A DNA stretch of 64,000 bases from a virus (taxonomy: Duplodnaviria > Heunggongvirae > Uroviricota > Caudoviricetes). The notes beneath the pieces were generated by a model. It searched no databases. It had not been told where the DNA came from and worked only from the letters and a program-made list of their open reading frames with translations. The position numbers and the translations under genes were made by a program. Location of the stretch: positions 1 to 64,000 of IMG/VR virus record IMGVR_UViG_3300028888_000051; one strand, written 5' to 3'. This document shows positions 25,656 to 47,912 of this stretch, one piece after another (the first letter of the stretch is position 1; every line of letters begins with the position of its first letter).

Positions 25656-26894
25656 TTACTTTTCCTCCAAAAAACTATTTATATATTCTAAATCAACTTT
25701 GTTTATAAAATCATTAATAATTTTATCATCTTTTAATGCTAAGAACATAATAGATTTTATATTTGATGGTTTATTTTTTATCATTTCTGCATAGTTTTTC
25801 TTACTAAGTTTTTCATCATCATTATTATTTATTTTTAAATCGCTATAAATATTTTTTGCTGAAATTATGATATTATTAATTTTAGTCTTAAATATTTTTA
25901 ATTTTTCTTTAAGTTCGGTTAATTTATCTTTAAGTTCTGGAAATATTTCTAACAAATCATCTTCTGATTCATTACGTATACATTGAAGTAAAAATTTTTC
26001 ACTTATACCCATCTCATGTTTAGCAAATTTTATTTTAAGATATTCATTACATTTAATTTTAAAGCGATGAAAATTAATATCACATACAACGACACCTTCT
26101 TTATCTATATTATCATATCCATTACAACGAGTTAATACTTCTTCGATATTTTTGTCCATATATAATTCTGGATGTTTAAAAGCACTTAGAATTATATTGT
26201 CAGATATATCTTCTGGACCATATTCCCACCACGTATTTATATTACGACATCCTAAATACCAAAGTTCTGTTTTTGGATAATCACAAATAATTCTCGTTTT
26301 TGGAGATACTAGTTCAAACATATATGTATAATTTTTATCTAATTGTTCATACCAATTTTCAGTTAATTTAGCATGTTTAAATGCAAGCTTAAGTAAATCC
26401 AAAAAACTGTTTGCGTTTTTAGAATCTTCTTCTTGATATTTTGAAATTAATGTTTCTGGTAATTGACAATTTATATCCCAACCATTATTAGATACCCATA
26501 TCCAACGATTAAGTTTTTTCGAATACCAACATTTCATTAACATACCATCTATTTTATCATGCACTTTGGCTGTTGACCAATCTATTTCATCTTCATCATC
26601 TTGTCCATGATTCATAAATTTATAGAATGGTGTGCATATCATTTCAGGACTATTCAAATCTGATACATCAACAATAGAACCTCGGCATGCTTTAACAATT
26701 CTATTAGTAAAATCACTTTCAAATTGACTATAACTCACCATATAAGCTTCTGAATAAATTAAATTATTATTTTCATCTTTAAATGGACATTGTTTGGCTG
26801 TAATAAAATATGGAGCTTTAGCTATTTCAGAAATCCAATTTTTACCATGAAAACGTATAAAATCAAGTAAATCGTTATAATAAAGTTCTTGCAT
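25656..26894 (-). CDS. RNA ligase (T4 Rnl1-like)
   Basis: CRG, PFYKFMN, KIDG (motif I), FEL, EGVV, KIK. Confidence 0.88.
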   Translation of the reverse strand: MQELYYNDLLDFIRFHGKNWISEIAKAPYFITAKQCPFKDENNNLIYSEAYMVSYSQFESDFTNRIVKACRGSIVDVSDLNSPEMICTPFYKFMNHGQDDEDEIDWSTAKVHDKIDGMLMKCWYSKKLNRWIWVSNNGWDINCQLPETLISKYQEEDSKNANSFLDLLKLAFKHAKLTENWYEQLDKNYTYMFELVSPKTRIICDYPKTELWYLGCRNINTWWEYGPEDISDNIILSAFKHPELYMDKNIEEVLTRCNGYDNIDKEGVVVCDINFHRFKIKCNEYLKIKFAKHEMGISEKFLLQCIRNESEDDLLEIFPELKDKLTELKEKLKIFKTKINNIIISAKNIYSDLKINNNDDEKLSKKNYAEMIKNKPSNIKSIMFLALKDDKIINDFINKVDLEYINSFLEEK

Positions 26895-27466
26895 TAATCA
26901 ATCCTTTTAAATATTGTATTACAAATATTATTTACACTTACATTTAAATCCGCAGTTGTTTCTAAAGTATTTAACAAAAATTTTTCTATTTCGTTTTTTG
27001 TTTTTGGTAAACTTAAATACTTTTCATACATTGTCATTGCTCCCATGGCTTCTCTTGCCCCACAACCAATAGCTACATATGCTTTATCTGTCTCTCCAAC
27101 TTGAAAATCTGATTCTATTTTATAAATTTTATTTTGAATTCCTAATAAAATATCACCAGGACTAGCAAAATCAGTTTCATCATTCTTTACACATATATTT
27201 TTTTCTATAAACAAATTTCTAATACCATTAATAACTGTTGTTCGAACATATTTATCTATATCTTCATTTATCTTTAATTTTGGTATATCTAATTCATACA
27301 TTAATACATCACGCATTCTAAAAGATCCACATGTAGCAATTAACATATCATTTAATTTAAAAATTTTTGGATCTAGACGTGTTTCTTTAGTATCTTCATT
27401 TGATCCTTGAGTATCACTAGCAAAGCAAAGCATTTTATTAGTTTTATAACCAATACAACAAGTCAT
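26894..27466 (-). CDS. HslV/proteasome-beta-like Ntn protease
   Basis: N-terminal (M)TCC nucleophile Thr, ASDTQ, K, AIGCG...A.GA. Confidence 0.8.
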   Translation of the reverse strand: MTCCIGYKTNKMLCFASDTQGSNEDTKETRLDPKIFKLNDMLIATCGSFRMRDVLMYELDIPKLKINEDIDKYVRTTVINGIRNLFIEKNICVKNDETDFASPGDILLGIQNKIYKIESDFQVGETDKAYVAIGCGAREAMGAMTMYEKYLSLPKTKNEIEKFLLNTLETTADLNVSVNNICNTIFKRID

Positions 27467-27476
27467 TTCCCAACTC

Positions 27477-28010
27477 CTAAATTATTTCTTTAAGCCAATA
27501 TAATATTTCATTATGATTATGTAAAGCCCTAAATGAATACATGTTTGAATTTTGCTTTAATAAATTTCTATACATTCTTTCAATTACATTATCTGGTACA
27601 CGTTTATATTCTGGTAATCTTAAAGAATTTCTAATTTTTGCTTCTGATAATGATACATCTGAAAAATCAATTATGATTAATTCTGCTCCATATTTATTAG
27701 CTAATTTTTCATAATTTTTTAATTGCCAAACATTAATATTAGTGGCATCAATTGTAGTCGATTTATGTAATTCTAATGATTTTTCTAACTGATTAAATAT
27801 TTCTTTCCAAACAGTTTCATTATTTAATTGACTAATATATTCTCTACCGTTTTCAACTGTTCTACCACTAATTTTTTCGCGAATTATATCAGATTCAATA
27901 ACATTTGAAATCTTAGTCATATAATCTCTAGTGAAACTACTTTTTCCACATCCTGGAATTCCACGCATTACAAAAAAATAAAAATTATTAGAATTATAAG
28001 GTTGTAGCAT
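27477..28010 (-). CDS. Polynucleotide kinase (AAA_33 family)
   Basis: RGIPGCGKS, SD.IR, IDATN, RN..R...VP..VI..M. Confidence 0.85.
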   Translation of the reverse strand: MLQPYNSNNFYFFVMRGIPGCGKSSFTRDYMTKISNVIESDIIREKISGRTVENGREYISQLNNETVWKEIFNQLEKSLELHKSTTIDATNINVWQLKNYEKLANKYGAELIIIDFSDVSLSEAKIRNSLRLPEYKRVPDNVIERMYRNLLKQNSNMYSFRALHNHNEILYWLKEII

Positions 28011-28593
28011 TTATATCTCCATTTTCTTTTGACTGCTCTAATTTTCTTTTCCAAGCTGATGAAATTTTCTTTAAAAATTTATATCTTAAAGTTTCTAATT
28101 CTTCGTCATTATATTCATCTCTATGTGCTAATAAATATTTTCTAATTAAACTCAATTTATCAAAACTATAAGCATCTAACCTTTTTGCAAACCATAAATT
28201 AACTTTTAATTCATAATTATTTTTTATTACTCTATCATCAAAATTTTTAATTTTTTCTTCTTCTTTTTGTTTTTTCTCAATCAATTTAATTTTACGCCAC
28301 GACATAATTTTTTTATTCCATGCTTTTAATTCACATGGATCTGCTGTTTTGTTTATAATAGAGCAAATAAGATCATTTAATTTTTCTTTATTTTCGTTAG
28401 ATTTACCATTAGAATCATGAAAATATTCATAATTTCCTTCATAATAAACATAATGATGACGTATATAATCTACTTTGTCACCAAAATCTAATCTCGAATC
28501 TTTTATAATGTCATAAATACTACGTCTACCAAAATGTAAAGTTTTTCTTTTAACACCGCGTAATATTTTATAATCATAGTGTTTTATAGTCAT
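27994..28593 (-). CDS. Hypothetical protein
   Basis: GGAGG RBS and own promoter. Confidence 0.6.
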   Translation of the reverse strand: MTIKHYDYKILRGVKRKTLHFGRRSIYDIIKDSRLDFGDKVDYIRHHYVYYEGNYEYFHDSNGKSNENKEKLNDLICSIINKTADPCELKAWNKKIMSWRKIKLIEKKQKEEEKIKNFDDRVIKNNYELKVNLWFAKRLDAYSFDKLSLIRKYLLAHRDEYNDEELETLRYKFLKKISSAWKRKLEQSKENGDINATTL

Positions 28594-28643: not shown

Positions 28644-28871
28644 CTATTTTATTTTTCTAAACCAATCTATTAATATTTCACGAGAAACTTTCATATAGTT
28701 TTTATTATATAATTTCAAAAGAATATCATATTGTTGTTTTTCTTCTTCTGTTGAACATGCATATAAAAGCATAAATAAACTAGCAGATGAATTCATATAC
28801 TCTTTTAAAGACTCTTCTGTGATCACTTTACTGTCATTTAAAGTTATGTTACCTATATATCACATTACCAT
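28644..28871 (-). pseudogene. Y.xLLKL module paralog with TGA at codon 4 (or a shorter gene from GTG 28826)
   Basis: ATG GTA ATG TGA TAT... in frame with the ORF, starting at a TAATG overlap; EKQQYDILLKLYNKNY. Confidence 0.45.
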
Positions 28872-29287
28872 TATTTTTTATTCCTATCTGATTCAAGTAT
28901 TAATTTTATTAGAGCTTTGTCTCTTTCTGTTTTAATTAATTCAGCTAGTGCTGTTTTATAATTATAATTTGAAAGTTTAAGTAGTGTTAAATATTCATTT
29001 TTTGTTTCAGTGTTATCTACTTTTTTTAATTCTAATTCAAATAATAACTTGTATACAATTTCATCTGAAGAATTAGAAATAGCTTTACATAAAATTTCTA
29101 TAATGTTACCTTCATGAGCTATTTCATTTTTAGTTCCTGTTGCATTAGCCCAAGTTAAAGTAGTCGGATTAGTTGAACTACTACTAACAAAAACTGGATT
29201 TGTAAAAGTTTTTGATCCTGAAATAGTTTGACCAGGAGTTATGTGTACAACATTAGAAATAGAATTATTTGATTTTGCTTGTGGCAT
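28871..29287 (-). CDS. Y.TLLKL module protein with an N-terminal tail-fibre-like motif
   Basis: VHITPGQTISGSKTF then KNEYLTLLKLSNYNYKT. Confidence 0.6.
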   Translation of the reverse strand: MPQAKSNNSISNVVHITPGQTISGSKTFTNPVFVSSSSTNPTTLTWANATGTKNEIAHEGNIIEILCKAISNSSDEIVYKLLFELELKKVDNTETKNEYLTLLKLSNYNYKTALAELIKTERDKALIKLILESDRNKK

Positions 29288-29288
29288 T

Positions 29289-29534
29289 TTATAATCCTTT
29301 ATTATATTCAATTTGTAAAACAGTTTTTCTATAATTATTGTCATTAAGTTTTAAAAGTACTTGATATTCTGCTTTAATTTCATCATCTTCATTTTCATTC
29401 AATTTATCAAATATTATATGATAATAAGCTTCAGTAGATATAGTATTTTTTGTATTTATCCAATTGAGAGTAGCCAATTTTGGAAAAGATATATTTTTTA
29501 ATTCGGTACATTGCTCAAATATATTATTCATCAT
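29289..29534 (-). CDS. Y.xLLKL module protein with one BspA-like LRR
   Basis: IFEQCTELKNISFPKL then KAEYQVLLKLNDNNYRKTVLQIEY. Confidence 0.6.
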   Translation of the reverse strand: MMNNIFEQCTELKNISFPKLATLNWINTKNTISTEAYYHIIFDKLNENEDDEIKAEYQVLLKLNDNNYRKTVLQIEYNKGL

Positions 29535-29887
29535 AATAAATTCCTATATGAATTCAAAATATTATTTGTATCAATTGTTAATCCATTATTATACTCAATC
29601 TGTAAAACTGTACGCCGATAATCATTATCATTCAACTTTAATAACGTTTCATATTCTGCTTTTTTATCCTCATTTTCATCACAAAGATTCATGAATACAT
29701 TACGATATAAACAATTATTATCAAATGGAAGTCTGCTTTCTTCATTTGAGGCTGAAAAAATTGATGGATATAAACTAGAAGTATCTAACTCTACTAATTT
29801 AAGCAACTCATTTTCATTTCCAACAACATAATTTATACCATCAAAATTAAACATTGAACCTGGAATAAGTTTATCTGGATGCATCAT
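29531..29887 (-). CDS. Y.TLLKL module protein with a PolB motif A-like peptide
   Basis: LDTSSLYPSI then KAEYETLLKLNDNDYRRTVLQIEY. Confidence 0.6.
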   Translation of the reverse strand: MMHPDKLIPGSMFNFDGINYVVGNENELLKLVELDTSSLYPSIFSASNEESRLPFDNNCLYRNVFMNLCDENEDKKAEYETLLKLNDNDYRRTVLQIEYNNGLTIDTNNILNSYRNLL

Positions 29888-30239
29888 TATTTCCTTTCAA
29901 AATTTCTTGTATTAAACCTGTTTGAATAGCTAATACTGTTTTAGCACAATTACCATCTAATAATTTAAAAAGCGTATCATATTGATTCTTTGTTTCATCA
30001 TCAGCAGCTCTCCAAAGTTTACGATATATAAAACTATATAATTCATCAAGGTCTAATTTTTCAATAAAATCGTTAATACAATCTTTAATGTTATAATCTT
30101 TTATACAACAACCTAAATTAATTTCTATATCGCGTATATCACGTATAGCCTTAAATATATTATACTTTAATTTTGATATATCTTCGAGAGTTTGTACCTC
30201 GTAATCTTCATAATAATCACGATTATAGTCATAATTCAT
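29871..30239 (-). CDS. Y.TLFKL module protein
   Basis: ETKNQYDTLFKLLDGNCAKTVL; AAGGAG RBS before MNYD. Confidence 0.6.
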   Translation of the reverse strand: MNYDYNRDYYEDYEVQTLEDISKLKYNIFKAIRDIRDIEINLGCCIKDYNIKDCINDFIEKLDLDELYSFIYRKLWRAADDETKNQYDTLFKLLDGNCAKTVLAIQTGLIQEILKGNNDASR

Positions 30240-32187
30240 GGTAATTAAACTCCTTATAAGCTTCATCTAAAGATAAAATTTTGATTCCTAATTGTAAAGC
30301 CTTTTTCATTTTAGTTGAAGTACTGTTTTTATCTTTAACAATTAAACAATTTGTATTTTTTGTCCAATTATCTCCAGCTTGACCTCCATTATCTATAATA
30401 TGCTGAATAAGTCCTTTATCACGTATACCTGAAAAGCAAACAACATAATCTTGATAAATATTTGAATTTATATTATTTTCTTCTGTTTTGAATTTAACAC
30501 CATAATCAAAAAGTTCCATGTGTGTTTTACGCATATACCAAGCATTTCTATATTCCATATATTGACTAATTCTAGATTCACCCAAACCTGGAATTGTTCT
30601 AAGTTCATCTTCTGTACAATAACAGCTAAATTCACCAAATTTATCCCAAATAGGTTGAAGAACACGTTCACCCATATCAGGACCAAATGCCCCACAAGCT
30701 ACCGCAAATTTGACTTCCGTAATAGTTGTTTTTTTGGCTTCTAGACTATTTTCTATCTTTTTTCCATTCTTCCCTATTACTTTTTCAATTATGCCTTTGT
30801 GAAGTGAAAAAATGTCTTCTGAATGATATATTGTGTTTTTGTTTAATAAGGTTTCATAAATTTTTACACAATTACCATAACCAAGCATATCTATTTCTAA
30901 TTTTTGACCAAGATATTCTAAAGCTCTTATTTCTGCTTCTTTACGATAATCATCATAATCTGTTGACCAAATATATTGTAAATCTACACCATTTATTTTT
31001 GTAGCACATTGTGGCAAATTATATTGTTCAGATGGTACAAGTACTTCTTCTAATTTAGGAATAACCAAACCAGCTCGCTTAAATTTAATTTTTGCACCTA
31101 TTCCACATTTAGATTTTATGACATTTTCATAATTATGAGCCGTTATATTTGTAATTAAAGCACCTGCGACTTCTATTGGTTCAATTTCAAGTACAGGAGT
31201 AAATATACCCCAACGACTAATTTGCCAATTAATGTTTTTTACAACAGATTCAGCAACATTATCATAAATACCTATTTTAAATTTACGACTACACTTTGGA
31301 TTTATAGTTCCTCCAACAAATCCAGTATCACTATAATCATTCTGAGTAATAATTATACCATCTAATTCGTAATCAGAAAATTTTAAACGAGTTTTTACTA
31401 TTTCTAAACAATTTTCATCAGTTAAAATTTCACTAGAGCATTCTTGATAATAAGGTACAGTAAAGCCTAAATGTTCTAATTGTTTAAAAGCTTTTGCTGT
31501 TCCTTGATTATTAGATGTCCAATAAGCAACAAATTTACAATTATTAAAAATATTAGCATCTGTATCTTTTTTATTTAAAGCACCTGCTATTGTATTACGA
31601 CCATTTTTTTGTTTTTTACCAGTTTTTAATTCAATTTCATTAAGTATAGATTCAATTCTATTTTTCTTAAAAAGAAGTTCGCCCCGAATAATTAATTTAT
31701 TTTTGTAATCAATTGTTTGTGGTATATTAGGAACCTGACTTATGTGACGCATAATATCTTTTCCTTTTATACCATGACCACGAGTGGCCGCTATACTTAA
31801 TTTTCCATTAATATATGTAAGAATAACGGAACAACCGTCTAATTTATCTGAAAATACAAAATTTTTATGTTTACCAATCCATTTTTCTAAATCACCTTCT
31901 TTTAATTCTTCCATACTACCCATTGGAATCTCATGAATAATATCTTGACCATATCCGGTATTTTCTGAAGTTAATTCATTAAAAAATGAATCTTCTGGCC
32001 ATTTTTCTTTAGCACAAAAATAAAGTAAATCATATAATTGATCGTCTATGAATAGACTAGGAAGGGTAATATTAAATTCATTTTCTATAACAGGATATTC
32101 ATCTTCTTTCAAACAATATATTTCACCCTTAGAATAAAATTCATTACATTTTTTCAAAATATGCTTAATCTGGGTATTCATTTGCAT
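30229..32187 (-). CDS. ligA: NAD-dependent DNA ligase
   Basis: KLDG, TRG.G..G.D, RGE, RN..AG, DGII, OB-fold, HhH, C-terminal BRCT; start moved to MQMN. Confidence 0.93.
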   Translation of the reverse strand: MQMNTQIKHILKKCNEFYSKGEIYCLKEDEYPVIENEFNITLPSLFIDDQLYDLLYFCAKEKWPEDSFFNELTSENTGYGQDIIHEIPMGSMEELKEGDLEKWIGKHKNFVFSDKLDGCSVILTYINGKLSIAATRGHGIKGKDIMRHISQVPNIPQTIDYKNKLIIRGELLFKKNRIESILNEIELKTGKKQKNGRNTIAGALNKKDTDANIFNNCKFVAYWTSNNQGTAKAFKQLEHLGFTVPYYQECSSEILTDENCLEIVKTRLKFSDYELDGIIITQNDYSDTGFVGGTINPKCSRKFKIGIYDNVAESVVKNINWQISRWGIFTPVLEIEPIEVAGALITNITAHNYENVIKSKCGIGAKIKFKRAGLVIPKLEEVLVPSEQYNLPQCATKINGVDLQYIWSTDYDDYRKEAEIRALEYLGQKLEIDMLGYGNCVKIYETLLNKNTIYHSEDIFSLHKGIIEKVIGKNGKKIENSLEAKKTTITEVKFAVACGAFGPDMGERVLQPIWDKFGEFSCYCTEDELRTIPGLGESRISQYMEYRNAWYMRKTHMELFDYGVKFKTEENNINSNIYQDYVVCFSGIRDKGLIQHIIDNGGQAGDNWTKNTNCLIVKDKNSTSTKMKKALQLGIKILSLDEAYKEFNYHEL

Positions 32188-32482
32188 TAAATATCTCCTT
32201 TTTATACTTTTCAACCATCGCCATAAATTTCCAATATTTTTTTTCATCATATTTAAAATTTTGTTTATATATACATAATACTTCAAATTCATTTAGTATT
32301 AATTTTGAACCAAGTGTATAATTTATATAATGGAAAAATTTACCAGTTCTGCAATCATATATAATTGCATTAATATAATTATCTGTATTTTTAGGCTGAG
32401 TAGAAAGAAAAATATAATCATAACCACTGTTTGTAGTTTTTATATATACATATTGTCTTGTTTTTTCTTTAACTATATTCAT
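32165..32482 (-). CDS. Hypothetical protein
   Basis: AAGGAG RBS and own promoter. Confidence 0.6.
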   Translation of the reverse strand: MNIVKEKTRQYVYIKTTNSGYDYIFLSTQPKNTDNYINAIIYDCRTGKFFHYINYTLGSKLILNEFEVLCIYKQNFKYDEKKYWKFMAMVEKYKKEIFNANEYPD

Positions 32483-33216: not shown

Positions 33217-33786
33217 TCAATTTTCTACAATAAATGATATTTTATTCATTTTTAAATTAAGTGATTTTACTTCATTTTTTATTAAATTCCAAAGTATTTC
33301 TTTATTTAAATATACTTCTTTAGTAGTTATATGTTTAATAATTTTACTATGTTGACATATTTTTTTACATTCATTTCTAGTTTTAAAAGATTTTTTATCT
33401 ATTAAAATTCTAGCAGGATTTGGTTTATTTATAGCAATACATTTATAAACTGCAATTTTACCAGGTATTAAATTATATGTTTCATAATGATGTACATATT
33501 CTCTATATTTTGCTTTTTTATTGTTATGTGTAATAATTAGCTCTCTTCCTATTTCACTTTCTTTTACTGAATTAGTTCGTTCTATTTCACCAGTCATTTT
33601 AAATAATGTAAGATATTCATTAAGTTTTTTATCAGTATGTATTGGTTCAACTAATTCTAATACAATTTGATGATAAGATTGATTACCTAATTTATTAGAT
33701 AAATAATAATCATCTGTCAAATATAGATATTTAGGAAAATTAAAAAATTTTGACATATTATTATATATCCTTTTGAGGTCTAACAA
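33217..33786 (-). CDS. Hypothetical protein with an internal NEYLTLFKM motif
   Basis: ORF translation. Confidence 0.55.
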   Translation of the reverse strand: MLDLKRIYNNMSKFFNFPKYLYLTDDYYLSNKLGNQSYHQIVLELVEPIHTDKKLNEYLTLFKMTGEIERTNSVKESEIGRELIITHNNKKAKYREYVHHYETYNLIPGKIAVYKCIAINKPNPARILIDKKSFKTRNECKKICQHSKIIKHITTKEVYLNKEILWNLIKNEVKSLNLKMNKISFIVEN

Positions 33787-38210: not shown

Positions 38211-38600
38211 TTATTTCCTTAAAAGTAAAAGACTTAATAAATCTTTTTTATGTCTTTCGCCATTTTTTGTAAGTTTAACTTTAAGTGTAGTTTGAAAATA
38301 TTTTTGAGCCTTTATATGTAAAATATCTAGTATTTCTAAATACTTGTTTAATTGATAAAAATTAATAAAATCATTTATTAATTTTTCATTTAATTTGTAA
38401 TCTTCTGTATTTATCATAAATGCTATACCAAACTCATCAGTTTTATTATTATAATCTATATAATCTATAGTAACACAATAAGGTTTTATATATTTCACAA
38501 AAGTACCATATATAACCTTAAAAAGTTTCGATGTTACTGTATATTTCATATCTTTTGCCCATTTATTTATTTTATATAAATATTGTATACTATTTTTCAT
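38211..38600 (-). CDS. Array protein, weak tag
   Basis: LNKYLEI segment; ends DLLSLLLLRK. Confidence 0.55.
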   Translation of the reverse strand: MKNSIQYLYKINKWAKDMKYTVTSKLFKVIYGTFVKYIKPYCVTIDYIDYNNKTDEFGIAFMINTEDYKLNEKLINDFINFYQLNKYLEILDILHIKAQKYFQTTLKVKLTKNGERHKKDLLSLLLLRK

Positions 38601-38616
38601 ATAAAGTAAAGCCTTT

Positions 38617-39000
38617 TCAATCTATACTATTTAAAGTTTCTGTATATCCAAATAAAGCTAATAAACCTATTATAAATTCTATGTCATCTTTTGTTATGTT
38701 ATTTTTTAAACTTATTTTTGCAGCATAACTATTAGGATTTTTACCATATTCAATATCTATAAATTTACGAATACCGTCTTGACTTAATTTATATTCAAAA
38801 GAAGTTTGTAAATTATTATTATCATAAAAAGTATTATAATATAGATTAAGCTCTATTGTATAATATAAAGTAGATGAACTACCTACTACAACTTTATTCT
38901 TTTTAGTCGTAAATTTTTGCATTGTAGCTTTTAAATAATCTATAAGCATCCACCAACATTTTATTTTTGGTTCAACATTTTCTAACCAATTAATTGACAT
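38617..39000 (-). CDS. Array protein, weak tag
   Basis: IRKFIDI...ISLKNN...IEFIIGLLAL. Confidence 0.55.
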   Translation of the reverse strand: MSINWLENVEPKIKCWWMLIDYLKATMQKFTTKKNKVVVGSSSTLYYTIELNLYYNTFYDNNNLQTSFEYKLSQDGIRKFIDIEYGKNPNSYAAKISLKNNITKDDIEFIIGLLALFGYTETLNSID

Positions 39001-39004
39001 TATA

Positions 39005-39466
39005 TTACCTCATAGTATTTTCTATTAAAATTAAATTTTTCGTAATATCTAAATATCTAATATCTCGATCTACAAAAATAATTAAATTTTTTTGTGTAAT
39101 ATTACTAGCTCTTGGAAATAAAGCGGTATTAGCATCAAAATATTTTTTAAAAAATTCAATTAATACTTCTCTATATGATTTATGCTTTTCTTTAATTATA
39201 GAAAAATAAATCAATGTAGCTAAATCATTTGAAATTTTAAATTCTATATACACAGGAAAAGAATTTTTCATAACTGTAAATAATTTTTTATCAGAATATC
39301 TATTTTTATCATAATATTTACCGTATCTGCCATTTTTACATAAATAATTTTTGCTAAAATGCCAAATTTTATATTCTGGACATATTTTGGTTAACCATTT
39401 TATAAATTTATCACGCCTATTACCCTCTATAATTAACCAATGTGTTTTTCCAATTTCTTCTAACAT
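39005..39466 (-). CDS. Hypothetical array protein
   Basis: Internal NDLATLIY. Confidence 0.55.
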   Translation of the reverse strand: MLEEIGKTHWLIIEGNRRDKFIKWLTKICPEYKIWHFSKNYLCKNGRYGKYYDKNRYSDKKLFTVMKNSFPVYIEFKISNDLATLIYFSIIKEKHKSYREVLIEFFKKYFDANTALFPRASNITQKNLIIFVDRDIRYLDITKNLILIENTMR

Positions 39467-40212
39467 TTATTATTTTTCCTATAACTATATGCATATTCTA
39501 AGGCTTCTTCAAGTGTATCATCAAAATATTTTTTTATATCTTTCGATGGCATAAAACTAAAAGCAGCATTTAAATAAAGACTAGTTAAATTTATATAAAG
39601 TTGAGATGCATTTTTACCTTGTTTATATAAATCATATGCATATTCTTTTTCTAATTTACATTTTTTCATAAGGTAAACAATAAATAATTTATAGTCATTT
39701 GGTTTTAGATGACAGAAATATGTATGATCTTTTTTATCAATAAAATCATGTTTACTATAATTAGTTAAATTTACTTTATATATTATTATTTCTTTATGTT
39801 GATTATCATATGTATTTTTTAATTGTTTAATTCTAGCTTTTCCTTCTTTTTGTCCACACGAAATAGCTGTTTTGACTATTCTTTTTAACCAATGGCTTTT
39901 TTCTTCATTATGATATTTAGTTTCTAAAATATCTTTTGATAAATTCTCTATATTAAACCAAACTGTATCAGCATATTGTTTAAATATAGAAAAAGGATTA
40001 TTATAATTTTTAAGTGAATTGTCTATATAATTACTAATTTCATTTTTTTCATACATATCTCTTTCTACAATCCAATCAAAGCATATATCATTTAAATCTT
40101 TTCCAACTAAATTTTTTAAATAGACAAGATTAAAAAAGATAGTACGATAAGAAAAATAAATTTTATCGCCTTCATAAAAATTAATAGTTATCATATCCTT
40201 TTCTTCAGTCAT
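39460..40212 (-). CDS. Hypothetical protein
   Basis: Own promoter and RBS. Confidence 0.6.
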   Translation of the reverse strand: MTEEKDMITINFYEGDKIYFSYRTIFFNLVYLKNLVGKDLNDICFDWIVERDMYEKNEISNYIDNSLKNYNNPFSIFKQYADTVWFNIENLSKDILETKYHNEEKSHWLKRIVKTAISCGQKEGKARIKQLKNTYDNQHKEIIIYKVNLTNYSKHDFIDKKDHTYFCHLKPNDYKLFIVYLMKKCKLEKEYAYDLYKQGKNASQLYINLTSLYLNAAFSFMPSKDIKKYFDDTLEEALEYAYSYRKNNKC

Positions 40213-40283
40213 TTTAATTTCCTTAATGTGGATAATATATTAATATTTATACTATATATAATTACAGATGTAAAGCCGTTAAT

Positions 40284-40619
40284 TCATAAAAGGTTTTTGA
40301 TTTTTAATAAAACATACATTTCTTCTATTGTAATTTGTTTATATTCTAATTCTTCTATTTCAGTTGACATAAATTCATTTATAGATTTAAAAATTATTTT
40401 GCTTTTACTTTTTTCTAATCCTAATTTTTCTAAAAATAATTTCCGTATATCAGAAGCAATAGAATAACCAGAATCAAATATTTTATATTTAATATTCATA
40501 GTTTTACGATATTTATTAAAATATACATAATCTAAACACCACATAGCAGCTGGTATATTATTATCAATTAATTTAAAGATTGTTTCACATACTATATCAT
40601 TATCAAAATACAAATCCAA
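40284..40619 (-). CDS. C-terminal tag family protein
   Basis: Ends EEMYVLLKIKNLL; start uncertain. Confidence 0.6.
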   Translation of the reverse strand: MDLYFDNDIVCETIFKLIDNNIPAAMWCLDYVYFNKYRKTMNIKYKIFDSGYSIASDIRKLFLEKLGLEKSKSKIIFKSINEFMSTEIEELEYKQITIEEMYVLLKIKNLL

Positions 40620-40710
40620 AGCACTCCATTAAATATATACCGCTATATATTATTAAAAAACTTAATAACAATATAATTAATAAATCTAAAGTATCAAATT
40701 CCATATTATA

Positions 40711-41067
40711 TTAATCTCCAAAAACCATCTTTAAATACACATAAAAATAATTTATATCATCTTTTATTTCAAAGCATAAATATTCTTTACGATAATCTTT
40801 TTCTAAATATTTTAAATTATATTTTTCACATATTTCTTTTACTATGTTTTTTCTATTTTTACAAATTTTAAAATATATTATTTTGAAATTTGAATGAATT
40901 AAATGTCTATAATATTTTCCATATCCATCACTATATGCTAATATATGTCTTTTTAATACTCGACAATTTAAAGAATAATTAAAAGAATATCTAACATGAC
41001 GTTCAATTATCTCTAAGCATTCATCATACTTCTCTAAATATTCTTTAGTTATATCTAAATTATTCAT
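40711..41067 (-). CDS. C-terminal tag family protein, subfamily A
   Basis: Ends NYFYVYLKMVFGD. Confidence 0.65.
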   Translation of the reverse strand: MNNLDITKEYLEKYDECLEIIERHVRYSFNYSLNCRVLKRHILAYSDGYGKYYRHLIHSNFKIIYFKICKNRKNIVKEICEKYNLKYLEKDYRKEYLCFEIKDDINYFYVYLKMVFGD

Positions 41068-41389
41068 ATTTTTCCCTATATGATAGTTTATATAAAGTAA
41101 CTATATTAAATACTTCATTTAAATATTCTTCTTTAAAACTTAGTTGTAAATAAGTAATTAGTTCACTATTTGTATATTGAAAATCAAAATATTTATCTAT
41201 ATTAAAATATTTCAAATAAAAATTTATTCGATCTATTGGGTTTATTATTAAAAATGATATATACCAATTACTTAAACTAAGTTTATAAGTAAAAAGTTCA
41301 TCATTTGAATATGATAATGATGAAACATTACATGTATTGTATATTATCTTATTTGTTAACCAATTTGCTAATTCTATTTCTTTACTCAT
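41060..41389 (-). CDS. C-terminal tag family protein, subfamily B
   Basis: Ends NIVTLYKLSYREKYE. Confidence 0.65.
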   Translation of the reverse strand: MSKEIELANWLTNKIIYNTCNVSSLSYSNDELFTYKLSLSNWYISFLIINPIDRINFYLKYFNIDKYFDFQYTNSELITYLQLSFKEEYLNEVFNIVTLYKLSYREKYE

Positions 41390-41732
41390 TTTGTTCCATT
41401 AATTTATAACTAATAATTATCTCTTCTGTTTGATTTAAATATTTTTTATTAAATTGAAGTGTAATAGCTGATCCAGGTTCATATATACTTGTTGGATTGG
41501 TATAATCTGCATCTAAATATTTATTTAATAATTTTTTATTAATATAATCTTGTAAAGTTCCACAAATTTCTCTTGCATCCCTATATTCAACTTCTAAATA
41601 TACAATCATTATTCCTGATTCTATTACAGATAAAGGAGCATTTAAAGCCTTATGCATAACATATATAAGAAAATCATTAATCAAATCAATTCTTTTTTGA
41701 TATAAATCTTCTTTTTTTAATAAATTATTCAT
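41382..41732 (-). CDS. C-terminal tag family protein, subfamily B
   Basis: Ends EEIIISYKLMEQNE. Confidence 0.65.
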   Translation of the reverse strand: MNNLLKKEDLYQKRIDLINDFLIYVMHKALNAPLSVIESGIMIVYLEVEYRDAREICGTLQDYINKKLLNKYLDADYTNPTSIYEPGSAITLQFNKKYLNQTEEIIISYKLMEQNE

Positions 41733-42029
41733 TTATACTTCCTTTAATTTCATTAATGTATATAAATCTGCAAAAGAACTACCACTGTTAAACGGAGCTC
41801 CACACATTACTACAAATTGTTCATCTTCATCAATTTTTTTACCTTTAGCTGCTCCAATATAATATTTTATTTCTTTTGTTAAGGTATCTAATACTTTAAC
41901 GATACCAATAGTATTAAGTTCACCTTTATCCATATAATGATATGTTGTTAAAGGAAACCAAATACTATCAATTATAACAAAATTAGTCATACCATAACAT
42001 TTAACTCTACGCTTATTTGTATCAGTCAT
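41733..42029 (-). CDS. Unrelated small phage domain with the tag appended
   Basis: IGIV...YIG...G...DEQ....GA.F, then NSGSS linker and ADLYTLMKL. Confidence 0.65.
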   Translation of the reverse strand: MTDTNKRRVKCYGMTNFVIIDSIWFPLTTYHYMDKGELNTIGIVKVLDTLTKEIKYYIGAAKGKKIDEDEQFVVMCGAPFNSGSSFADLYTLMKLKEV

Positions 42030-42096
42030 ATTTTTTATCCTTTAATTTTTAACTATATAGTATTATATAAATTTATATAATGTAAAACCATCTAAA

Positions 42097-42453
42097 TCAT
42101 ATTAATCCCATTAATTTTATCAATGTCAAAAATTCATTAAATTCTATTTCAGTTAAGTTATTTTTTAATTTTATTTTAATTGAATAGTTTGATATATTTA
42201 CTTTAATATAATTATCAAAATTTTTATTTTTTAAATATTGTTCAATACTATGTTTTATCATATATAAAGCATTATTTAATCCAATTTTATCATAATTTGG
42301 ATTATCTATTAATTTGAATTTTACTTTTGCAGAACCATCATAATTATGCCAAATATTTCCAAACAAAGTTTTATCATACTTAATTATGTGTGAAACAAGT
42401 ATTTCATATAAAATCATTGAAATTTTAGTTAGTTCTTGATTATTAATAATCAT
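42097..42453 (-). CDS. C-terminal tag family protein, subfamily B
   Basis: Ends NEFLTLIKLMGLI. Confidence 0.65.
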   Translation of the reverse strand: MIINNQELTKISMILYEILVSHIIKYDKTLFGNIWHNYDGSAKVKFKLIDNPNYDKIGLNNALYMIKHSIEQYLKNKNFDNYIKVNISNYSIKIKLKNNLTEIEFNEFLTLIKLMGLI

Positions 42454-42457
42454 ATTT

Positions 42458-42853
42458 TTATTCCTTATTACTTATAAATTTACATAATGTATACAATTCA
42501 TTAAATTTATCATTAGATATATAAAAACTTAAATGTTTCAATCTATAATTTTCATTTTCTAAACAAAGACCAAAATTTTTCATGATATTTTCACTTTTCT
42601 TTCTACGATTTGTTTTACTCCACACATTAAATTTAATTAAATTATTTGGTATATTATTAAATTGTATATGTACAAACCCTTCTGAATAAATATAACAACC
42701 ATCTGTAATCCTATCACCATTAGATTCCCAATGATCATTTAAAGTATTAATAATAAAATTATATTTTTTATTAAATTCATTAATATCTTTAATAAATTTT
42801 ACACGCTCAATTAATTGCATTTCAACAGCTTTTATAATTTTATTTTCTTTCAT
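42458..42853 (-). CDS. C-terminal tag family protein, subfamily A
   Basis: Ends NELYTLCKFISNKE. Confidence 0.65.
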   Translation of the reverse strand: MKENKIIKAVEMQLIERVKFIKDINEFNKKYNFIINTLNDHWESNGDRITDGCYIYSEGFVHIQFNNIPNNLIKFNVWSKTNRRKKSENIMKNFGLCLENENYRLKHLSFYISNDKFNELYTLCKFISNKE

Positions 42854-42904
42854 GATACATTTCCTTTTTATTGATATATTTTTATTATCATTTATATGCA
42901 TAAA

Positions 42905-43336
42905 TCATTTAATTAACATTTTTGATAAAGTATATAAATCGTTAAACATATTTGATTGTATTTTAAATATATAATATTGACTTCTATAATTAATAATATC
43001 AATTGGAATTAAATCAAAAACATTCGTTAATTCTTCAACTAAAATTTTTCTTTTATTACCAAATGTAAATATAAATGTAATATAATCATCTTGAAGATTT
43101 GCTTTTTTTGATAATCTAAATAGATTATTTTTACTATTATTATCTATTTCAAATCCATTATGTATAATAAAAGATATATGACGTAAAAAAGATTTTGAAC
43201 TTTTACCATTATAAGCTAATTCAGTAGTTTTAAATTTATTACTTAAATACATAATAATATTACGATTTATATCATTATATATTTGTTCATATTCTGTGAT
43301 GTTTTTTGCTATAATTTCAAATTCATCTATAGTCAT
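42905..43336 (-). CDS. C-terminal tag family protein, subfamily A
   Basis: Ends NDLYTLSKMLIK. Confidence 0.65.
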   Translation of the reverse strand: MTIDEFEIIAKNITEYEQIYNDINRNIIMYLSNKFKTTELAYNGKSSKSFLRHISFIIHNGFEIDNNSKNNLFRLSKKANLQDDYITFIFTFGNKRKILVEELTNVFDLIPIDIINYRSQYYIFKIQSNMFNDLYTLSKMLIK

Positions 43337-43927
43337 TTAGATAATTCCTAACAATTTTATTGTGGTTAATGTATTATCAGAATCAATTATTTTATATATC
43401 ACACATTGTTTTTCAAAAGATCTCTCAATTTCTTGAATATCTAAAAGTTTAAATGTATTTTCTAAAGAATCTGTTAATTTACAAAATGGAATAAATAAGA
43501 TATTATTTAATTTATACTGATTTATATTTATGTAATTTTCAAAAAAATTAGTATGAATAAGTTTAAAATATATTATTTCTTTAACTAATTGATCTTTAAA
43601 TTTTTTTGGTAAAACTACATCATTGATAAATTCTGAAATTTTATCTTTATAAATAAATATTTGCTTTTTATTTAAAAATCCAAAACTATTTAATGCAAAT
43701 ATATCAGGATATTCTCTTTCTAATTGATCTACAATTTTAATAAATCTAGACTCATTAAAATGTCTACTTTTCATATAACCTATTTCATATCCATTTATTT
43801 CAGAATATGGAGATTCATTTACAAGAATAAGTCCTTGTTTATTTTGTATTCTGTCTGTAATTTTAATTAGTCTATTTAATTTATATTCAATTTTTGCTGT
43901 TGTTAAAAAATCTATACTTTTCAACAT
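43337..43927 (-). CDS. C-terminal tag family protein
   Basis: Ends DNTLTTIKLLGII. Confidence 0.65.
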   Translation of the reverse strand: MLKSIDFLTTAKIEYKLNRLIKITDRIQNKQGLILVNESPYSEINGYEIGYMKSRHFNESRFIKIVDQLEREYPDIFALNSFGFLNKKQIFIYKDKISEFINDVVLPKKFKDQLVKEIIYFKLIHTNFFENYININQYKLNNILFIPFCKLTDSLENTFKLLDIQEIERSFEKQCVIYKIIDSDNTLTTIKLLGII

Positions 43928-43949
43928 CTTTTTTTCCTTTCTATATAAA

Positions 43950-43981
43950 ATTATAGGCTTTACTTAGTTAAAAGTAAAGCC
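43950..43981 (-). promoter_or_regulatory. Palindromic sigma70-type promoter/hairpin
   Basis: Minus strand GGC-TTTACT-17 bp-TATAAT; ggctttactt/aagtaaagcc inverted repeat. Confidence 0.75.
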
Positions 43982-44009
43982 GTTTATAAAAATAAATAAA
44001 ATAAATTAT

Positions 44010-44435
44010 TTATAGATTACCATTAAATCCATATATATTATTAAATTTATATAACATTTTAATCATAGCTATTGTATTAGAGTCATTAGAATAGAGAGAG
44101 GCTTTTAATTTATTAAATTCTGGTATAAGATTATGATTATTTAATTCACGTAAATTAATATCAGCTAATTTTCTTAAACCACTATCTGTCCACATACCAA
44201 TATTTGCATGTGCTAAATTAGACCTATTTTCTAAAGCTGCTTCATTATGTTTATTTGTCAAAATACTTATAAATTGATCATTAGTTATACCATAATCAGC
44301 AAACTTTTTCTGTTTTTCTTTCCAATCACGATTATGAGCTTGTTTACTTAAAGTATCTATATTATAGATTTTTTCTTCTAATTTATGACAAGCTTCTCTA
44401 AACAATATTAAGTATTTATTCATATGATTAAACAT
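44010..44435 (-). CDS. Putative virion-internal protein, paralog 1
   Basis: MNKYLILFREACHKLEE leader; similar to 44428-44874 throughout. Confidence 0.6.
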   Translation of the reverse strand: MFNHMNKYLILFREACHKLEEKIYNIDTLSKQAHNRDWKEKQKKFADYGITNDQFISILTNKHNEAALENRSNLAHANIGMWTDSGLRKLADINLRELNNHNLIPEFNKLKASLYSNDSNTIAMIKMLYKFNNIYGFNGNL

Positions 44436-44874
44436 GTATATTATCTAAATCTGGATCATCACTAAATCTATAAAGCATTTTTACCATGGCTGTTGCATTT
44501 TTGTCAGCTGGATATAATATTTCTTTAAGTTTATTAAATGAATCAATACAACCTTTTTCTTTAACTATATCTAGCATTTTATTTCCTAATTTTTGTAACC
44601 CCAAATCTTGCCAATTACCAATTCTTGCTTGTGACATAAGATTACGATCTTGGATACCTCTTTCTGCTGCATTACCTACAACAGTACTAATAAATCTACC
44701 ATCAGCAATATCATATTTTTCAAATTTTTCTTTTTGCTGTTTCCAATTTGTAGTGTTAAATTGATTTGTATTTCTAAATGGATTTATATGAGATTTTAAT
44801 TTATTTGAACTATAAATATCTTCTTCTAATTTAGTAACAGCTTCTTTAAAAAGTTGTACATATTTATTTATCAT
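44428..44874 (-). CDS. Putative virion-internal protein, paralog 2
   Basis: MINKYVQLFKEAVTKLEE leader; AAGTTCTA upstream (44921-44928, minus). Confidence 0.6.
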   Translation of the reverse strand: MINKYVQLFKEAVTKLEEDIYSSNKLKSHINPFRNTNQFNTTNWKQQKEKFEKYDIADGRFISTVVGNAAERGIQDRNLMSQARIGNWQDLGLQKLGNKMLDIVKEKGCIDSFNKLKEILYPADKNATAMVKMLYRFSDDPDLDNIHV

Positions 44875-44965
44875 TTTATATTATATCCTTAATTTATATA
44901 TAAATTAAATATCTAAAAATTAGAACTTACACAACTAATAAAAAATAATATATATTTAATGGTTT

Positions 44966-45298
44966 TTATCTCAATATTTTCCATAATGTATAAACTTCAT
45001 CTAAAAATTCGGATTTATTTGAAAGAGGGTAGAGTTTAAGAATATAAAATTCACCACCTGTACCTTGTAGTTTTACACCTAAATAATTTTCAAAACCTAG
45101 TTTATTTATATATTGTTGCAAACCAAAATAATATCGATTGGGCTTTTGTTGATAATGAATATAACGCATAATACAAGGTTGATCTAGATTAGTTTTTACA
45201 ATTACTTTTTTACGTAATGTTTGTTTATTAAGACTATCAAACCAAGACAAATAGATATCTTTTAATAATTCAATAACTTGTTCTGAATCTAACATCAT
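44966..45298 (-). CDS. C-terminal tag family protein, subfamily B
   Basis: Ends DEVYTLWKILR. Confidence 0.65.
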   Translation of the reverse strand: MMLDSEQVIELLKDIYLSWFDSLNKQTLRKKVIVKTNLDQPCIMRYIHYQQKPNRYYFGLQQYINKLGFENYLGVKLQGTGGEFYILKLYPLSNKSEFLDEVYTLWKILR

Positions 45299-45738
45299 AT
45301 TTTTCCTTCCAGCTTTAATAATGTATAAAGATTGTCAAAAGCCTCTCTGAGTATAAATAAACTTTTTTCAGATTTACGATAGTATTCTGGTTGAATTATA
45401 GAAAGTCCAAATGTATCTTGTAAAGTTTTACAAATTTGTCTACGTTTACGTGGTATCTGAAAGGTAAATTTAACGATAGTTTTATTATTTTCAACAAATC
45501 TATATAATTTTTCTAATTTTTTACTTATACTATCAGATCTACATGGATCATCTAAATTATTATCTAAAAAAGCGATTAAACGCGGAATAGGAAGATCATA
45601 GGCATAAATAGTATAATGCAGTTTATTTCTTCGTATAGAATCACATATATATTCGAGAACTGCATAATATTCTTTGTTAAAATTAACAGCTACCTTACGT
45701 AATTCTTTATATTCTTTTTGCTTATCGTTAATATCCAT
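45295..45738 (-). CDS. C-terminal tag family protein, subfamily A
   Basis: Ends DNLYTLLKLEGKI. Confidence 0.65.
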   Translation of the reverse strand: MDINDKQKEYKELRKVAVNFNKEYYAVLEYICDSIRRNKLHYTIYAYDLPIPRLIAFLDNNLDDPCRSDSISKKLEKLYRFVENNKTIVKFTFQIPRKRRQICKTLQDTFGLSIIQPEYYRKSEKSLFILREAFDNLYTLLKLEGKI

Positions 45739-45757
45739 TTATCAATTCCTTATATTT

Positions 45758-45826
45758 ATAAATATAATTTAACCTATATTATATCTAAAGTAAAACCATC
45801 TTTAAACCATATTAAAATAATTTATG
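45758..45826 (-). repeat. About 70-bp promoter cassette, copy 1
   Basis: Near-identical to 47014-47082. Confidence 0.8.
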
Positions 45827-45889
45827 AAAAATGCATCTTAAAAAGGTTTATTTAATCTCATATAGTTTAAATGATATTCGAAAAGTTCT

Positions 45890-46243
45890 TTACTGATTAT
45901 TGATATTTTTATTTTCCCAAAAATCTTGTAATTTAAGTACAGTTTCTAAATCTTCCATTTGATCTATGTATTCTTTTTTAAGAATAATATGTATAGAAGA
46001 CTTATATCTTTTTATATTAAAATAACCGTCTATGTTTTTATCTCTAAAACTTTTTCTTATTTCTGCATAATGCGATTCACTAGCCCAATTTTCTGTATAA
46101 AAAATAACTCCTGGTTCTTTATTGTTATATTCAACAAGATTAAATCCATCAAGTGTAATACAATTTTTTAAAACTTCTAGACAAAAATGATTTGCATTTT
46201 CATGTCTAAATCTCGCTTCTTCTGAAATACCGATGGCTATCAT
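45890..46243 (-). CDS. C-terminal tag family protein, subfamily B, paralog of 49722-50048
   Basis: HENANHFC...EYNN.PG; EDLETVLKL. Confidence 0.65.
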   Translation of the reverse strand: MIAIGISEEARFRHENANHFCLEVLKNCITLDGFNLVEYNNKEPGVIFYTENWASESHYAEIRKSFRDKNIDGYFNIKRYKSSIHIILKKEYIDQMEDLETVLKLQDFWENKNINNQ

Positions 46244-46259
46244 GATTATTCTCTTTTTA

Positions 46260-46643
46260 TTAATTTACATATATACAAAGCAAAGTATAAAGCATATTTA
46301 TATCATTAGTTTCTAAAACATAATATGTATTTGCATAATTTTTGGCATATACATCTATACGCTTTATATTAAAATTTGTTTCAAGATAATTTATAAGTTT
46401 TTTTCTATTTTTCCATACTCTTAAAATAAATCTTACTCCAGTATTTTTATCATAGGTATATGACACAGCATCATATGGAGCTGAATCAAATATATCTCCG
46501 CGAAAAGTATAAGCGTAATTTTTGTATAAAAAAGTACTATAGTGATAAAAATAATCTGTTGTTGGATTAACCTTCATAAATTCATACAAAATGTCATTTA
46601 ATTTATTAATAGTTTCTGTATATAATCTTTCTTCACAAATCAT
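46260..46643 (-). CDS. C-terminal tag family protein, subfamily A
   Basis: Ends NMLYTLLCIYVN. Confidence 0.65.
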   Translation of the reverse strand: MICEERLYTETINKLNDILYEFMKVNPTTDYFYHYSTFLYKNYAYTFRGDIFDSAPYDAVSYTYDKNTGVRFILRVWKNRKKLINYLETNFNIKRIDVYAKNYANTYYVLETNDINMLYTLLCIYVN

Positions 46644-46996
46644 TATATTTCCTCTAATAAATATAACAAATCAAACATCTTCATATAAACATATAAATAA
46701 TTTAAACCCTCATCATTTTTATAATTATTTTTGAAGTTAAGAATAAATTGATTTTCATCAGATATAATTTTAAGGTCTATAAAATATTCCAAACCAGTAG
46801 TATAAAGAAAATCCCTTGTATTTTTACTAAAAGATACTTGTCCAGTTATAGAAGGATCAATTTTATACATAACCAAATATACTGTTAAATCAGGTGTTTT
46901 TGCATTATGAGCATATTCAAATTGGACTACTTTATCACCATTACATGTCAAAATTATATTCTTCAAAAGATGTGTGATTTCATTTAATTGAATCAT
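46643..46996 (-). CDS. C-terminal tag family protein, subfamily B
   Basis: NYLYVYMKMF near the C-terminus. Confidence 0.65.
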   Translation of the reverse strand: MIQLNEITHLLKNIILTCNGDKVVQFEYAHNAKTPDLTVYLVMYKIDPSITGQVSFSKNTRDFLYTTGLEYFIDLKIISDENQFILNFKNNYKNDEGLNYLYVYMKMFDLLYLLEEI

Positions 46997-47013
46997 GATT
47001 ATCCCTTTCATTC

Positions 47014-47082
47014 ATAAATATAATTTAACCTATATTATATCCAAAGTAAAACCGTTTTTAAGCCACATTAAAATAATCTATG
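47014..47082 (-). repeat. About 70-bp promoter cassette, copy 2
   Basis: Near-identical to 45758-45826. Confidence 0.8.
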
Positions 47083-47125
47083 GTGCATCAAGTTATTGAG
47101 GTTATATTACAATATAAAAGATATC

Positions 47126-47536
47126 TTAGTTAGCCATTATTTTAGCTAATGTACAAAGCTCATCAAAATTTTCTCGTGGAATCTTAAAGCTAAAAGTCTG
47201 CATCCTATAGTCATGTGTATAACTAGGAATTAAACCAAAGATTTCTACAAGTCTTTGACATATTTGTTTACGTTTATTGAACATATAAAAAGTTATGTTA
47301 AAATATTGATTTGGTGTATTATTTTTATAACCAATTTTAGCAGCTAAATTATTTAATCTTTCATTATCATCTGTGTGCATAGTATATAACATAGATTTAT
47401 AATTTATACCACTAAATGCTGGTTTTATACCGAATTCATTTTTAACATATTGCTGTATATTACGCATCATTTCATTATATCTATCTTGATGGTTTATAGC
47501 ATAATTATAAAAATCTTCAAATTCTTTACTTGTCAT
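47126..47536 (-). CDS. C-terminal tag family protein, subfamily A
   Basis: Ends DELCTLAKIMAN. Confidence 0.65.
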   Translation of the reverse strand: MTSKEFEDFYNYAINHQDRYNEMMRNIQQYVKNEFGIKPAFSGINYKSMLYTMHTDDNERLNNLAAKIGYKNNTPNQYFNITFYMFNKRKQICQRLVEIFGLIPSYTHDYRMQTFSFKIPRENFDELCTLAKIMAN

Positions 47537-47537
47537 G

Positions 47538-47912
47538 TTATATCTCCGTCATTTTACAAATCATATATAAATCATTGAAATCATCAAAATCTATATAAAA
47601 TATATAATGCGATTCATAGATATAAGTTCCATCATCTGGTTTAAGACCGAATGTATTTTTAAGATAAATTTCTACTTCATCACTTCTATCATCTACAGCA
47701 AACCAAAGTTTTCTTAATTTTACAAAATAATTATCCAACGATCCAATGCCAGCTAATTTAAAGCCAGAAGAATCTAAGTATCCAGGTACTATACGTATAT
47801 CTCTACTAAATCTTTTTTGTAAATTTTCAGATATAATACTAGTTACTAAAATAAATTTATCCCAATGTGGATATAATTCTGGCATATATACTGATATTTC
47901 ATCATTGATCAT
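47538..47912 (-). CDS. C-terminal tag family protein, subfamily A
   Basis: Ends NDLYMICKMTEI. Confidence 0.65.
   Translation of the reverse strand: MINDEISVYMPELYPHWDKFILVTSIISENLQKRFSRDIRIVPGYLDSSGFKLAGIGSLDNYFVKLRKLWFAVDDRSDEVEIYLKNTFGLKPDDGTYIYESHYIFYIDFDDFNDLYMICKMTEI

Follow-up and report, generated by a model that had tools for sequence, protein, structure and literature searches.

Why would a phage carry, directly behind its DNA ligase gene, five small genes whose products end alike and begin differently? The window analysed here (64,000 nucleotides) spans positions 1 to 64,000 of a 227,383-bp IMG/VR record from an uncultured phage (IMGVR_UViG_3300028888_000051; completeness 95% by CheckV), and at 28644-30239 it holds such an array: five small co-oriented open reading frames (ORFs) on the minus strand, tightly packed, which we call g5 to g1 in the direction of reading. 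With moderate confidence, we regard them as a lineage-specific family of small (50-138 amino acids), mostly acidic and soluble phage proteins with an intracellular accessory role, built on an unnamed C-terminal three-helix bundle. Sequence comparisons suggest that tandem duplications enlarge the family at its place behind the ligase gene, from one to three to five copies, and that deletions shrink it. The N-terminal parts, or heads, are mosaic: g2 has a tail-fibre cassette of the BppL_N type, g3 has a single leucine-rich repeat (LRR) unit, the heads of g4 and g5 are without recognisable relatives, and g1 is a nearly bare module. The features are as follows, in the direction of reading.

30229-32292, minus strand: NAD-dependent DNA ligase; the array comes directly behind it
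29871-30239, minus strand: g5, 122 amino acids, first family member; module at about 29916-30053; orthologues P0040, P0046 and P0050
29531-29887, minus strand: g4, 117/118 amino acids; module at about 29579-29719; N-terminus with a DTSSLYPS stretch
29289-29534, minus strand: g3, 81 amino acids; module at about 29292-29429
28871-29287, minus strand: g2, 138 amino acids; disordered N-terminal half followed by four helices; module at about 28883-29065
28644-28826, minus strand: g1, module with almost no head; 60 amino acids from the GTG at 28826 or 50 amino acids from the ATG at 28796

The shared C-terminal module

A first-pass annotation, made from the letters alone, had described five tandem genes with a constant C-terminal module, and this description holds. 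All five genes have in common a homologous C-terminal module of about 45-60 amino acids, and in an alignment of the five proteins the residues K, Y, L, K and L of K..Y..L.KL are invariant within a stretch of about 45 amino acids. We made subfamily profiles separately from metagenome orthologues and then compared them by hhalign; these independent profiles align over the module only, with the g3-type profile matched by the g4-type (E = 3.6e-22), the g5-type (E = 2.6e-9), the g2-type (E = 7.4e-9) and the g1 orthologue (E = 5.2e-6). In profile form, the signature runs from a Y..(I/L)F helix through K.EY.TLLKL to (D/N)Y..TVL.I, and is found in 5/5 window genes. A hidden Markov model (HMM) of the module finds exactly five copies in the whole genome.

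Two of the copies are also alike at the DNA level, as had been noted at first reading: a stretch of 121 nucleotides in g3 (29272-29392) is 73% identical to its counterpart in g4 (29559-29679). The mismatches fall at third codon positions in 14/25 cases and show no adenine bias. We considered a diversity-generating retroelement as the source of this repeat and rejected it, since the mismatches are not adenine-specific and lie at third codon positions. The idea that the g3 and g4 heads share an ancestor was rejected as well, since hhalign aligns the module alone.

The module is confidently predicted to form a three-helix bundle. AlphaFold2, run on g4 with a 30-sequence family alignment, places helices at residues 57-71, 73-85 and 90-117, with a predicted local distance difference test score (pLDDT) above 90 for residues 57-100. 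For g2 it yields the same bundle with one extra helix (helices at 58-71, 75-89, 93-105 and 110-135; pLDDT 85-97), and in both proteins the heads are modelled with low confidence. A complex prediction for two copies of the module scored 0.13 relative to a mark of 0.42, which counts neither for nor against self-association.

Searches with the module returned nothing of known function. There was no significant family match in Pfam, PHROGs or NCBIfam, no match in the PDB by sequence profile, none in the ESM Atlas, none by Foldseek in BFVD or, at E <= 0.001, in the PDB, and a wide search with VIA-align gave only generic helical bundles (best Z 5.5). A HMMER scan of 1.84 billion representative proteins found 23 clusters that match the module, of which 21 are proteins of 44-138 amino acids and the other two are LysM-repeat proteins. 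Kinship with LysM (PF01476) was rejected: the two LysM-repeat proteins match only 15 profile positions, summed over 8-9 repeats, and no family member matches Pfam LysM at E <= 10. A match to T4_y05I_C was also discarded, as it came from a single member (E = 0.037). Apart from the LysM artefacts, the module was never seen fused to a larger body among the 23 clusters, and searches of cultured phages and of 185,579 prokaryote genomes found no match to the family. The family is thus rare and restricted to small proteins. Its members are mostly acidic, with a median isoelectric point of 5.1 compared to 8.3 for all small ORFs of the genome.

A possible source of the module lies elsewhere in the window, where about 30 genes of an early-gene family (38211-50048, minus strand) encode proteins with the C-terminal end [ED]-L-Y-T-L-x-K-[LMI]. 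The array could be an offshoot of this family at 38-50 kb; the central module helix, E-Y-x-T-L-L-K-L, would then be the counterpart of the helix there, whether through common descent or through a shared use in docking. The likeness of the two helices is real at the level of the motif, as judged from the aligned sequences: EDLETVLKL (ORF 45890-46243) and ELETLFKI (ORF 49722-50048) compare with EYETLLKL in the array module, hhalign pairs exactly these helices, and an HMM of the last helix of the early family puts 7/30 members of the array family above the 99th percentile of shuffles. However, the hhalign match reaches only E = 0.04 (probability 1.3%, 18 columns), a second subfamily is not aligned at the helix, the helix HMM scores 8.7 bits at most, and the module HMM matches none of the early genes at E <= 10. 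Moreover, the array helix sits in the middle of the bundle with 20-35 residues after it, whereas the early-family helix ends the protein. We therefore consider a derivation from the early family unlikely, if not negligibly so. Similar octapeptides also occur in two further ORFs, EYYTLFKL at the C-terminus of one (genome 203233-203790, minus strand) and EYLTLFKM internally in the other (window 33217-33756, minus strand).

Arrangement behind the ligase gene and turnover among relatives

The five genes are packed end to end. The ATG of g5 lies within the ligase gene, 11 nucleotides from its end, and has AAGGAG 10 nucleotides upstream; g4 and g5 overlap by 14-17 nucleotides (g4 orthologues begin at the second ATG, 29884); the start of g3 overlaps the stop of g4 (ATGA); and the start of g2 is 1 nucleotide past the stop of g3. 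From the overlapping start and stop codons, translation of the array genes is probably coupled, also to that of the ligase. The packing, together with the lack of any terminator-like site within 27.4-32.6 kb, a region that includes both ligase and array, suggests that they share one transcript with the ligase gene.

The last gene departs from this order. Its orthologue P0041 has 75 amino acids, and upstream of g1 we find what remains of a start.

28860-28865, minus strand: vestigial g1 start, an ATG (28863-28865) followed by an in-frame TGA (28860-28862)

Likeness of g1 to P0041 carries on past this ATG-TGA stop. Because homology goes on beyond the in-frame TGA, g1 has lost its original start; either its translation is re-initiated, from GTG 28826 or ATG 28796, or the gene has recently become a pseudogene. 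An alternative genetic code in which the TGA is read was ruled out: TGA terminates 13/155 long ORFs, and code 11 fits the record, with dense genes and long ORFs that stop at TAA, TAG and TGA.

Two relatives offer DNA for comparison, L006 (identical to L011) and L008. In 3/3 phages with DNA, counting that of the window, a family member starts on the ligase stop or 2 nucleotides after it, and the head type found there varies (g5-type in the window, g4-type in L006, another type in L008). Copy number differs as well: there is one member in L008, whose ligase is 65% identical, three in L006/L011 (g4-type, g3-type and g2-type) and five in the window. Both g5 and g1 are missing from L006/L011. The gene g5 was either inserted here or deleted there, exactly between ligase and g4. 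In the place of g1, L006 has an opposite-strand gene of 327 amino acids (L006 5949-6932, minus strand), which has no family match and whose best PHROG (E = 0.007) is of unknown function.

The constant position of one member at the ligase stop, kept despite different head types, could mean that the module binds the NAD-dependent ligase or another part of the replisome and tunes DNA joining or repair. This is improbable in our estimation. Adjacency is the sole evidence for it, five copies with unrelated heads would be unexpected in a stoichiometric partner of an enzyme, and the acidic to neutral character of the proteins makes direct DNA binding unlikely.

The same comparisons bear on whether the array consists mostly of decaying duplicates, one copy being functional and the rest drifting, such that the heads would be translated junk and their motif likenesses meaningless. 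Some decay is evident: the start codon of g1 is lost, L006 lacks g5 and g1, and the g3-type copy of L006 has kept its head and first helix while the remainder is past recognition by the module HMM. Nevertheless, g2, g3, g4 and g5 have intact orthologues on many metagenome contigs, down to 30-50% identity and with their heads conserved, and ribosome-binding sites and coupled starts have been retained. The g4 orthologues are 75-97% identical, with a further g4-type group at 45-59%, and the g3-type head is preserved in members of only 30-49% identity. For g4 in the window compared to L006, the ratio of nonsynonymous to synonymous divergence (dN/dS) is 0.13 in the head and 0.06 in the module. The heads are, by these comparisons, selected protein sequence, fixed within each subfamily, with purifying selection computed for g4. 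General decay is accordingly a doubtful account of the array, and we give it little weight.

Synonymous divergence (dS) in g4 (window 29531-29884 compared to L006 5004-5342) is itself uneven, being about 1.7 in the module and 0.25 in the head. The module has 16 synonymous differences over 24 synonymous sites, and the higher value there could reflect either exchange between paralogous modules or the noise of a small sample.

It had also been proposed that the locus is a nursery of new genes built by fragment capture, a view under which heads might be swapped between relatives. We looked for swapped N-termini in the orthologue comparisons and saw no head exchange, and heads this old, conserved between orthologues, speak against a nursery. 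Capture as such survives as a past event for g2, in the form of a 49-amino-acid in-frame cassette, and plausibly for g3, but not as an ongoing process. Three singletons on ENA contigs of 538-1475 bp (P0035, P0037, P0038) do combine an identical g4-type tail with N-termini of unrelated bacterial proteins (a membrane protein, a GerXC-like lipoprotein and a pullulanase PUD domain, with junctions within about 12 codons of one another). We rejected them as evidence of capture: each is a singleton on a short contig, and in all likelihood they arose as assembly chimeras at the repeated module.

Heads of different kinds

The head of g2 was said to resemble a tail-fibre repeat, and this likeness is borne out.

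29102-29248, minus strand: tail-fibre (BppL_N-type) cassette, g2 residues 14-62; in-frame, and absent as a block from some orthologues

Residues 11-44 of g2 have 50% identity over 34 amino acids to two repeats of a tail protein of the same phage (195305-196564; BLASTP E = 2e-5 and 4e-5). The Smith-Waterman score against this protein is 78, compared to 38.2 +/- 5.6 for shuffles, with 0/2000 as high. This tail protein and its neighbour (197320-198294) score above the Pfam cut-off for BppL_N, at 44.5 and 45.6 bits. By itself g2 reaches 15.1 bits against BppL_N (PF18338; E = 0.017), which is under the gathering score of 25.8 bits, and the top seven PDB matches of the g2-type profile are all TP901-1 BppL chains (E about 0.08 each). 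Together these results support a genuine tail-fibre motif in g2. Residues 11-44 align with ..VVH.T..QTI.G.KTF.., the motif found in the tail proteins of the phage and at the N-terminus of the lower baseplate (receptor-binding) protein of lactococcal phage TP901-1; unlike BppL_N proteins, g2 has no fibre shaft or receptor-binding domain, its motif is joined to a helical bundle, and the gene belongs to the putative ligase operon.

At the DNA level, the cassette scores 31 against the tail gene (13.4 +/- 1.7 for controls). This likeness is clear, but we do not take it as proof of a recent copy made within the genome, since about 73% identity over 63 nucleotides is expected from 50% amino acid identity together with strong A+T codon bias.

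Presence of the cassette varies among orthologues. Sixteen clusters hold g2 orthologues of 138 amino acids, while three members of 89 amino acids (P0087, P0088 and P0091) are without exactly residues 14-62 and are otherwise nearly identical to the 138-amino-acid P0086. The contigs that carry the cassette-less P0088 and P0091 are 85 and 204 kb long. Because the long form spans more divergent lineages, deletion of the cassette is the simpler reading. The array also provides a clear case of a tail-fibre motif cassette that an otherwise unrelated gene has gained or lost in frame.

The g3 head had been likened to BspA-type LRR proteins, and profile comparisons agree.

29475-29528, minus strand: one BspA-type (LRR_5) repeat unit, g3 residues 3-20 (NNIFEQCTELKNISFPKL), found by profile against the PDB

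With the g3-type profile, each of the three best PDB matches is a BspA-type LRR protein (4gt6_A, E = 2.3e-8; 4fs7_A, E = 8.1e-8; 6mlx_A, E = 3.8e-4), and these matches arise from profile positions 3-19 fitting successive repeats 5-10 times. No LRR protein in the PDB was matched by the profiles of the other four subfamilies, which have the same module. Against Pfam LRR_5 (PF13306), the best of the family is a distant member, P0051, with 17.5 bits (E = 0.004; cut-off 27.7 bits), and g3 itself has no Pfam match at E <= 1. Thus, support at the profile level points to one LRR_5 unit in the g3 head, by descent or, over 18 residues, by convergence. The g3-type head fits the repeat consensus F..C..L..I.FP.L; in LRR_5 proteins many such units are stacked, whereas here a single unit of about 18-20 amino acids, with no tandem units, leads directly into the helical module and cannot form a solenoid. 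The genome of this phage has no LRR_5 gene.

The third likeness, of the g4 head to motif A of family B DNA polymerases, did not hold. The polB of this phage reads DVASLYPS where g4 reads DTSSLYPS, but g4 scores 51 against this polB and an unrelated ORF of 141 amino acids reaches 50; likewise the DNA likeness is not significant (17 compared to 15.7 +/- 1.9). In Pfam, g4 finds nothing at E <= 1, family B DNA polymerase (PF00136) included, and the g4-type profile finds no polymerase in the PDB at E <= 10. The DxxSLYPS motif is missing in the distant g4-type members P0033 and P0034, and pLDDT is below 50 for residues 34-53, the stretch of the motif. The polB gene itself (224425-227383, plus strand) encodes a divergent family B DNA polymerase, with only 13 bits to PF00136, and runs off the 3' end of the record, which is thus cut inside polB. 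The g5 gene encodes a helical head with many Tyr, Asp and Glu residues, and a g5-type profile search found no relatives of this head beyond its own orthologues.

These heads had given rise to the idea of a display or decoy cassette, in which the constant module would show mimics of conserved proteins and host sensors or assembling multimers would bind the mimic instead. The g2 head does carry a real BppL_N-type motif that is present in the tail proteins of the phage, and that of g3 amounts to a single LRR_5 unit; the parent motifs are both beta-strand elements, normally packed against identical neighbours, such that an isolated copy could in principle dock by strand addition, and the locus is near RNA-repair genes typical of counter-defence. 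However, only 1/5 heads (g2) copies a protein of this phage, the likeness to polB is at chance level, and the phage has no LRR_5 protein. Furthermore, in the relatives on the 85-kb and 204-kb contigs it is precisely the g2 mimic that was deleted, the remainder of the gene being retained, and there is no turnover of heads between relatives such as an arms-race decoy set might show. We consider decoys very unlikely. A peptide-presentation scaffold, in which the handle carries single self-stacking beta units (BppL_N strand, LRR_5 unit) that dock by strand addition onto parent-type assemblies or sensors, so that each paralogue would cap, poison or decoy a different target, fares equally poorly.

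Genomic setting and a putative role

The genes around the array are replication and repair genes (ligase, a deoxycytidine monophosphate deaminase, a polynucleotide kinase (PNK)-like kinase and an RnlA-like RNA ligase), with no virion genes among them. On the other side of the array, past g1, is a gene of no known kind, and an RNA-repair-style cluster (25656-28010, minus strand) follows just downstream.

27994-28593, minus strand: unknown gene, 199 amino acids, other flank of the array
27477-28010, minus strand: PNK-like P-loop kinase, RNA-repair-style cluster
26894-27466, minus strand: proteasome/HslV-like N-terminal nucleophile (Ntn) hydrolase, RNA-repair-style cluster
25656-26894, minus strand: RnlA-family RNA ligase, RNA-repair-style cluster

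Because the neighbours are replication and RNA-repair genes, the proteins are acidic and no virion genes are nearby, we favour an intracellular accessory role. The proteins would work inside the infected cell, as accessory factors in host takeover or counter-defence, and not in the virion. From their architecture, the helical bundle would be a common scaffold or handle, and the short, mostly unstructured heads would give each paralogue its own binding partner.

Several points weigh against this account. The module resembles nothing of known activity, and a scaffold with a specificity peptide is read from the architecture. The heads, modelled with low confidence, may need a partner in order to fold, or may never fold. 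The losses of the g2 cassette, g5 and g1, together with the decay of the g3-type module, imply that members are dispensable, and near-neutral turnover would fit as well. Finally, the tail-fibre motif of g2 could point to a virion-associated role.

An accessory family of this kind would have company. Like the lineage-specific multigene families of jumbo phages, the array consists of tandem, small, fast-evolving paralogues in which variable bodies end in a constant C-terminal part, lies in an early or replication-region context, belongs to no database family and differs in copy number between close relatives. It differs from them in having only five copies, in its constant part, which is a complete three-helix bundle of 45-60 amino acids and not a single terminal helix, and in two heads that are recognisable snippets of known repeat families. 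Much of a jumbo-phage genome consists of expanded families of small orphans; functions in host takeover and anti-defence are likely to be found among them, and almost none of these families has a known mechanism. The array adds one more to the fast-evolving accessory families that giant phages commonly carry, with a three-helix module previously unnamed.

Two other systems invite comparison. The internal proteins of T-even phages (IPI, IPII, IPIII and the polymorphic Ip loci) are small polymorphic accessory proteins from a hyperplastic locus, with a short constant segment in common, and IPI, at least, counters host defence. In T4, this segment, about 10 amino acids long, lies at the N-terminus, targets the protein to the capsid and is removed by the prohead protease; the constant part of the array proteins is instead a folded and much longer C-terminal region, each paralogue has an N-terminus of its own, and nothing links the array to the capsid. 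The ankyrin-repeat/PRANC (F-box-like) host-range proteins of poxviruses are a multigene family that combines a variable N-terminal binding part with a constant C-terminal handle. The array follows the same architectural logic by analogy only: poxviruses are eukaryotic viruses, their handle has the SCF ubiquitin ligase as its partner, and there is no relation in sequence or fold.

The question of a handle with exchangeable peptides is tractable in this array, which has few members and a module modelled at pLDDT >90. The family also supplies natural "experiments": the g2 head cassette is kept in some orthologues and deleted in others, copy number runs from one to five, and one member is a bare module. 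As for the phage itself, no cultured phage has DNA-level likeness to the region; the record has a GC (guanine plus cytosine) content of 26.6%, and the ligase adjoining the array is at most 30% identical to the ligases of known jumbo phages.

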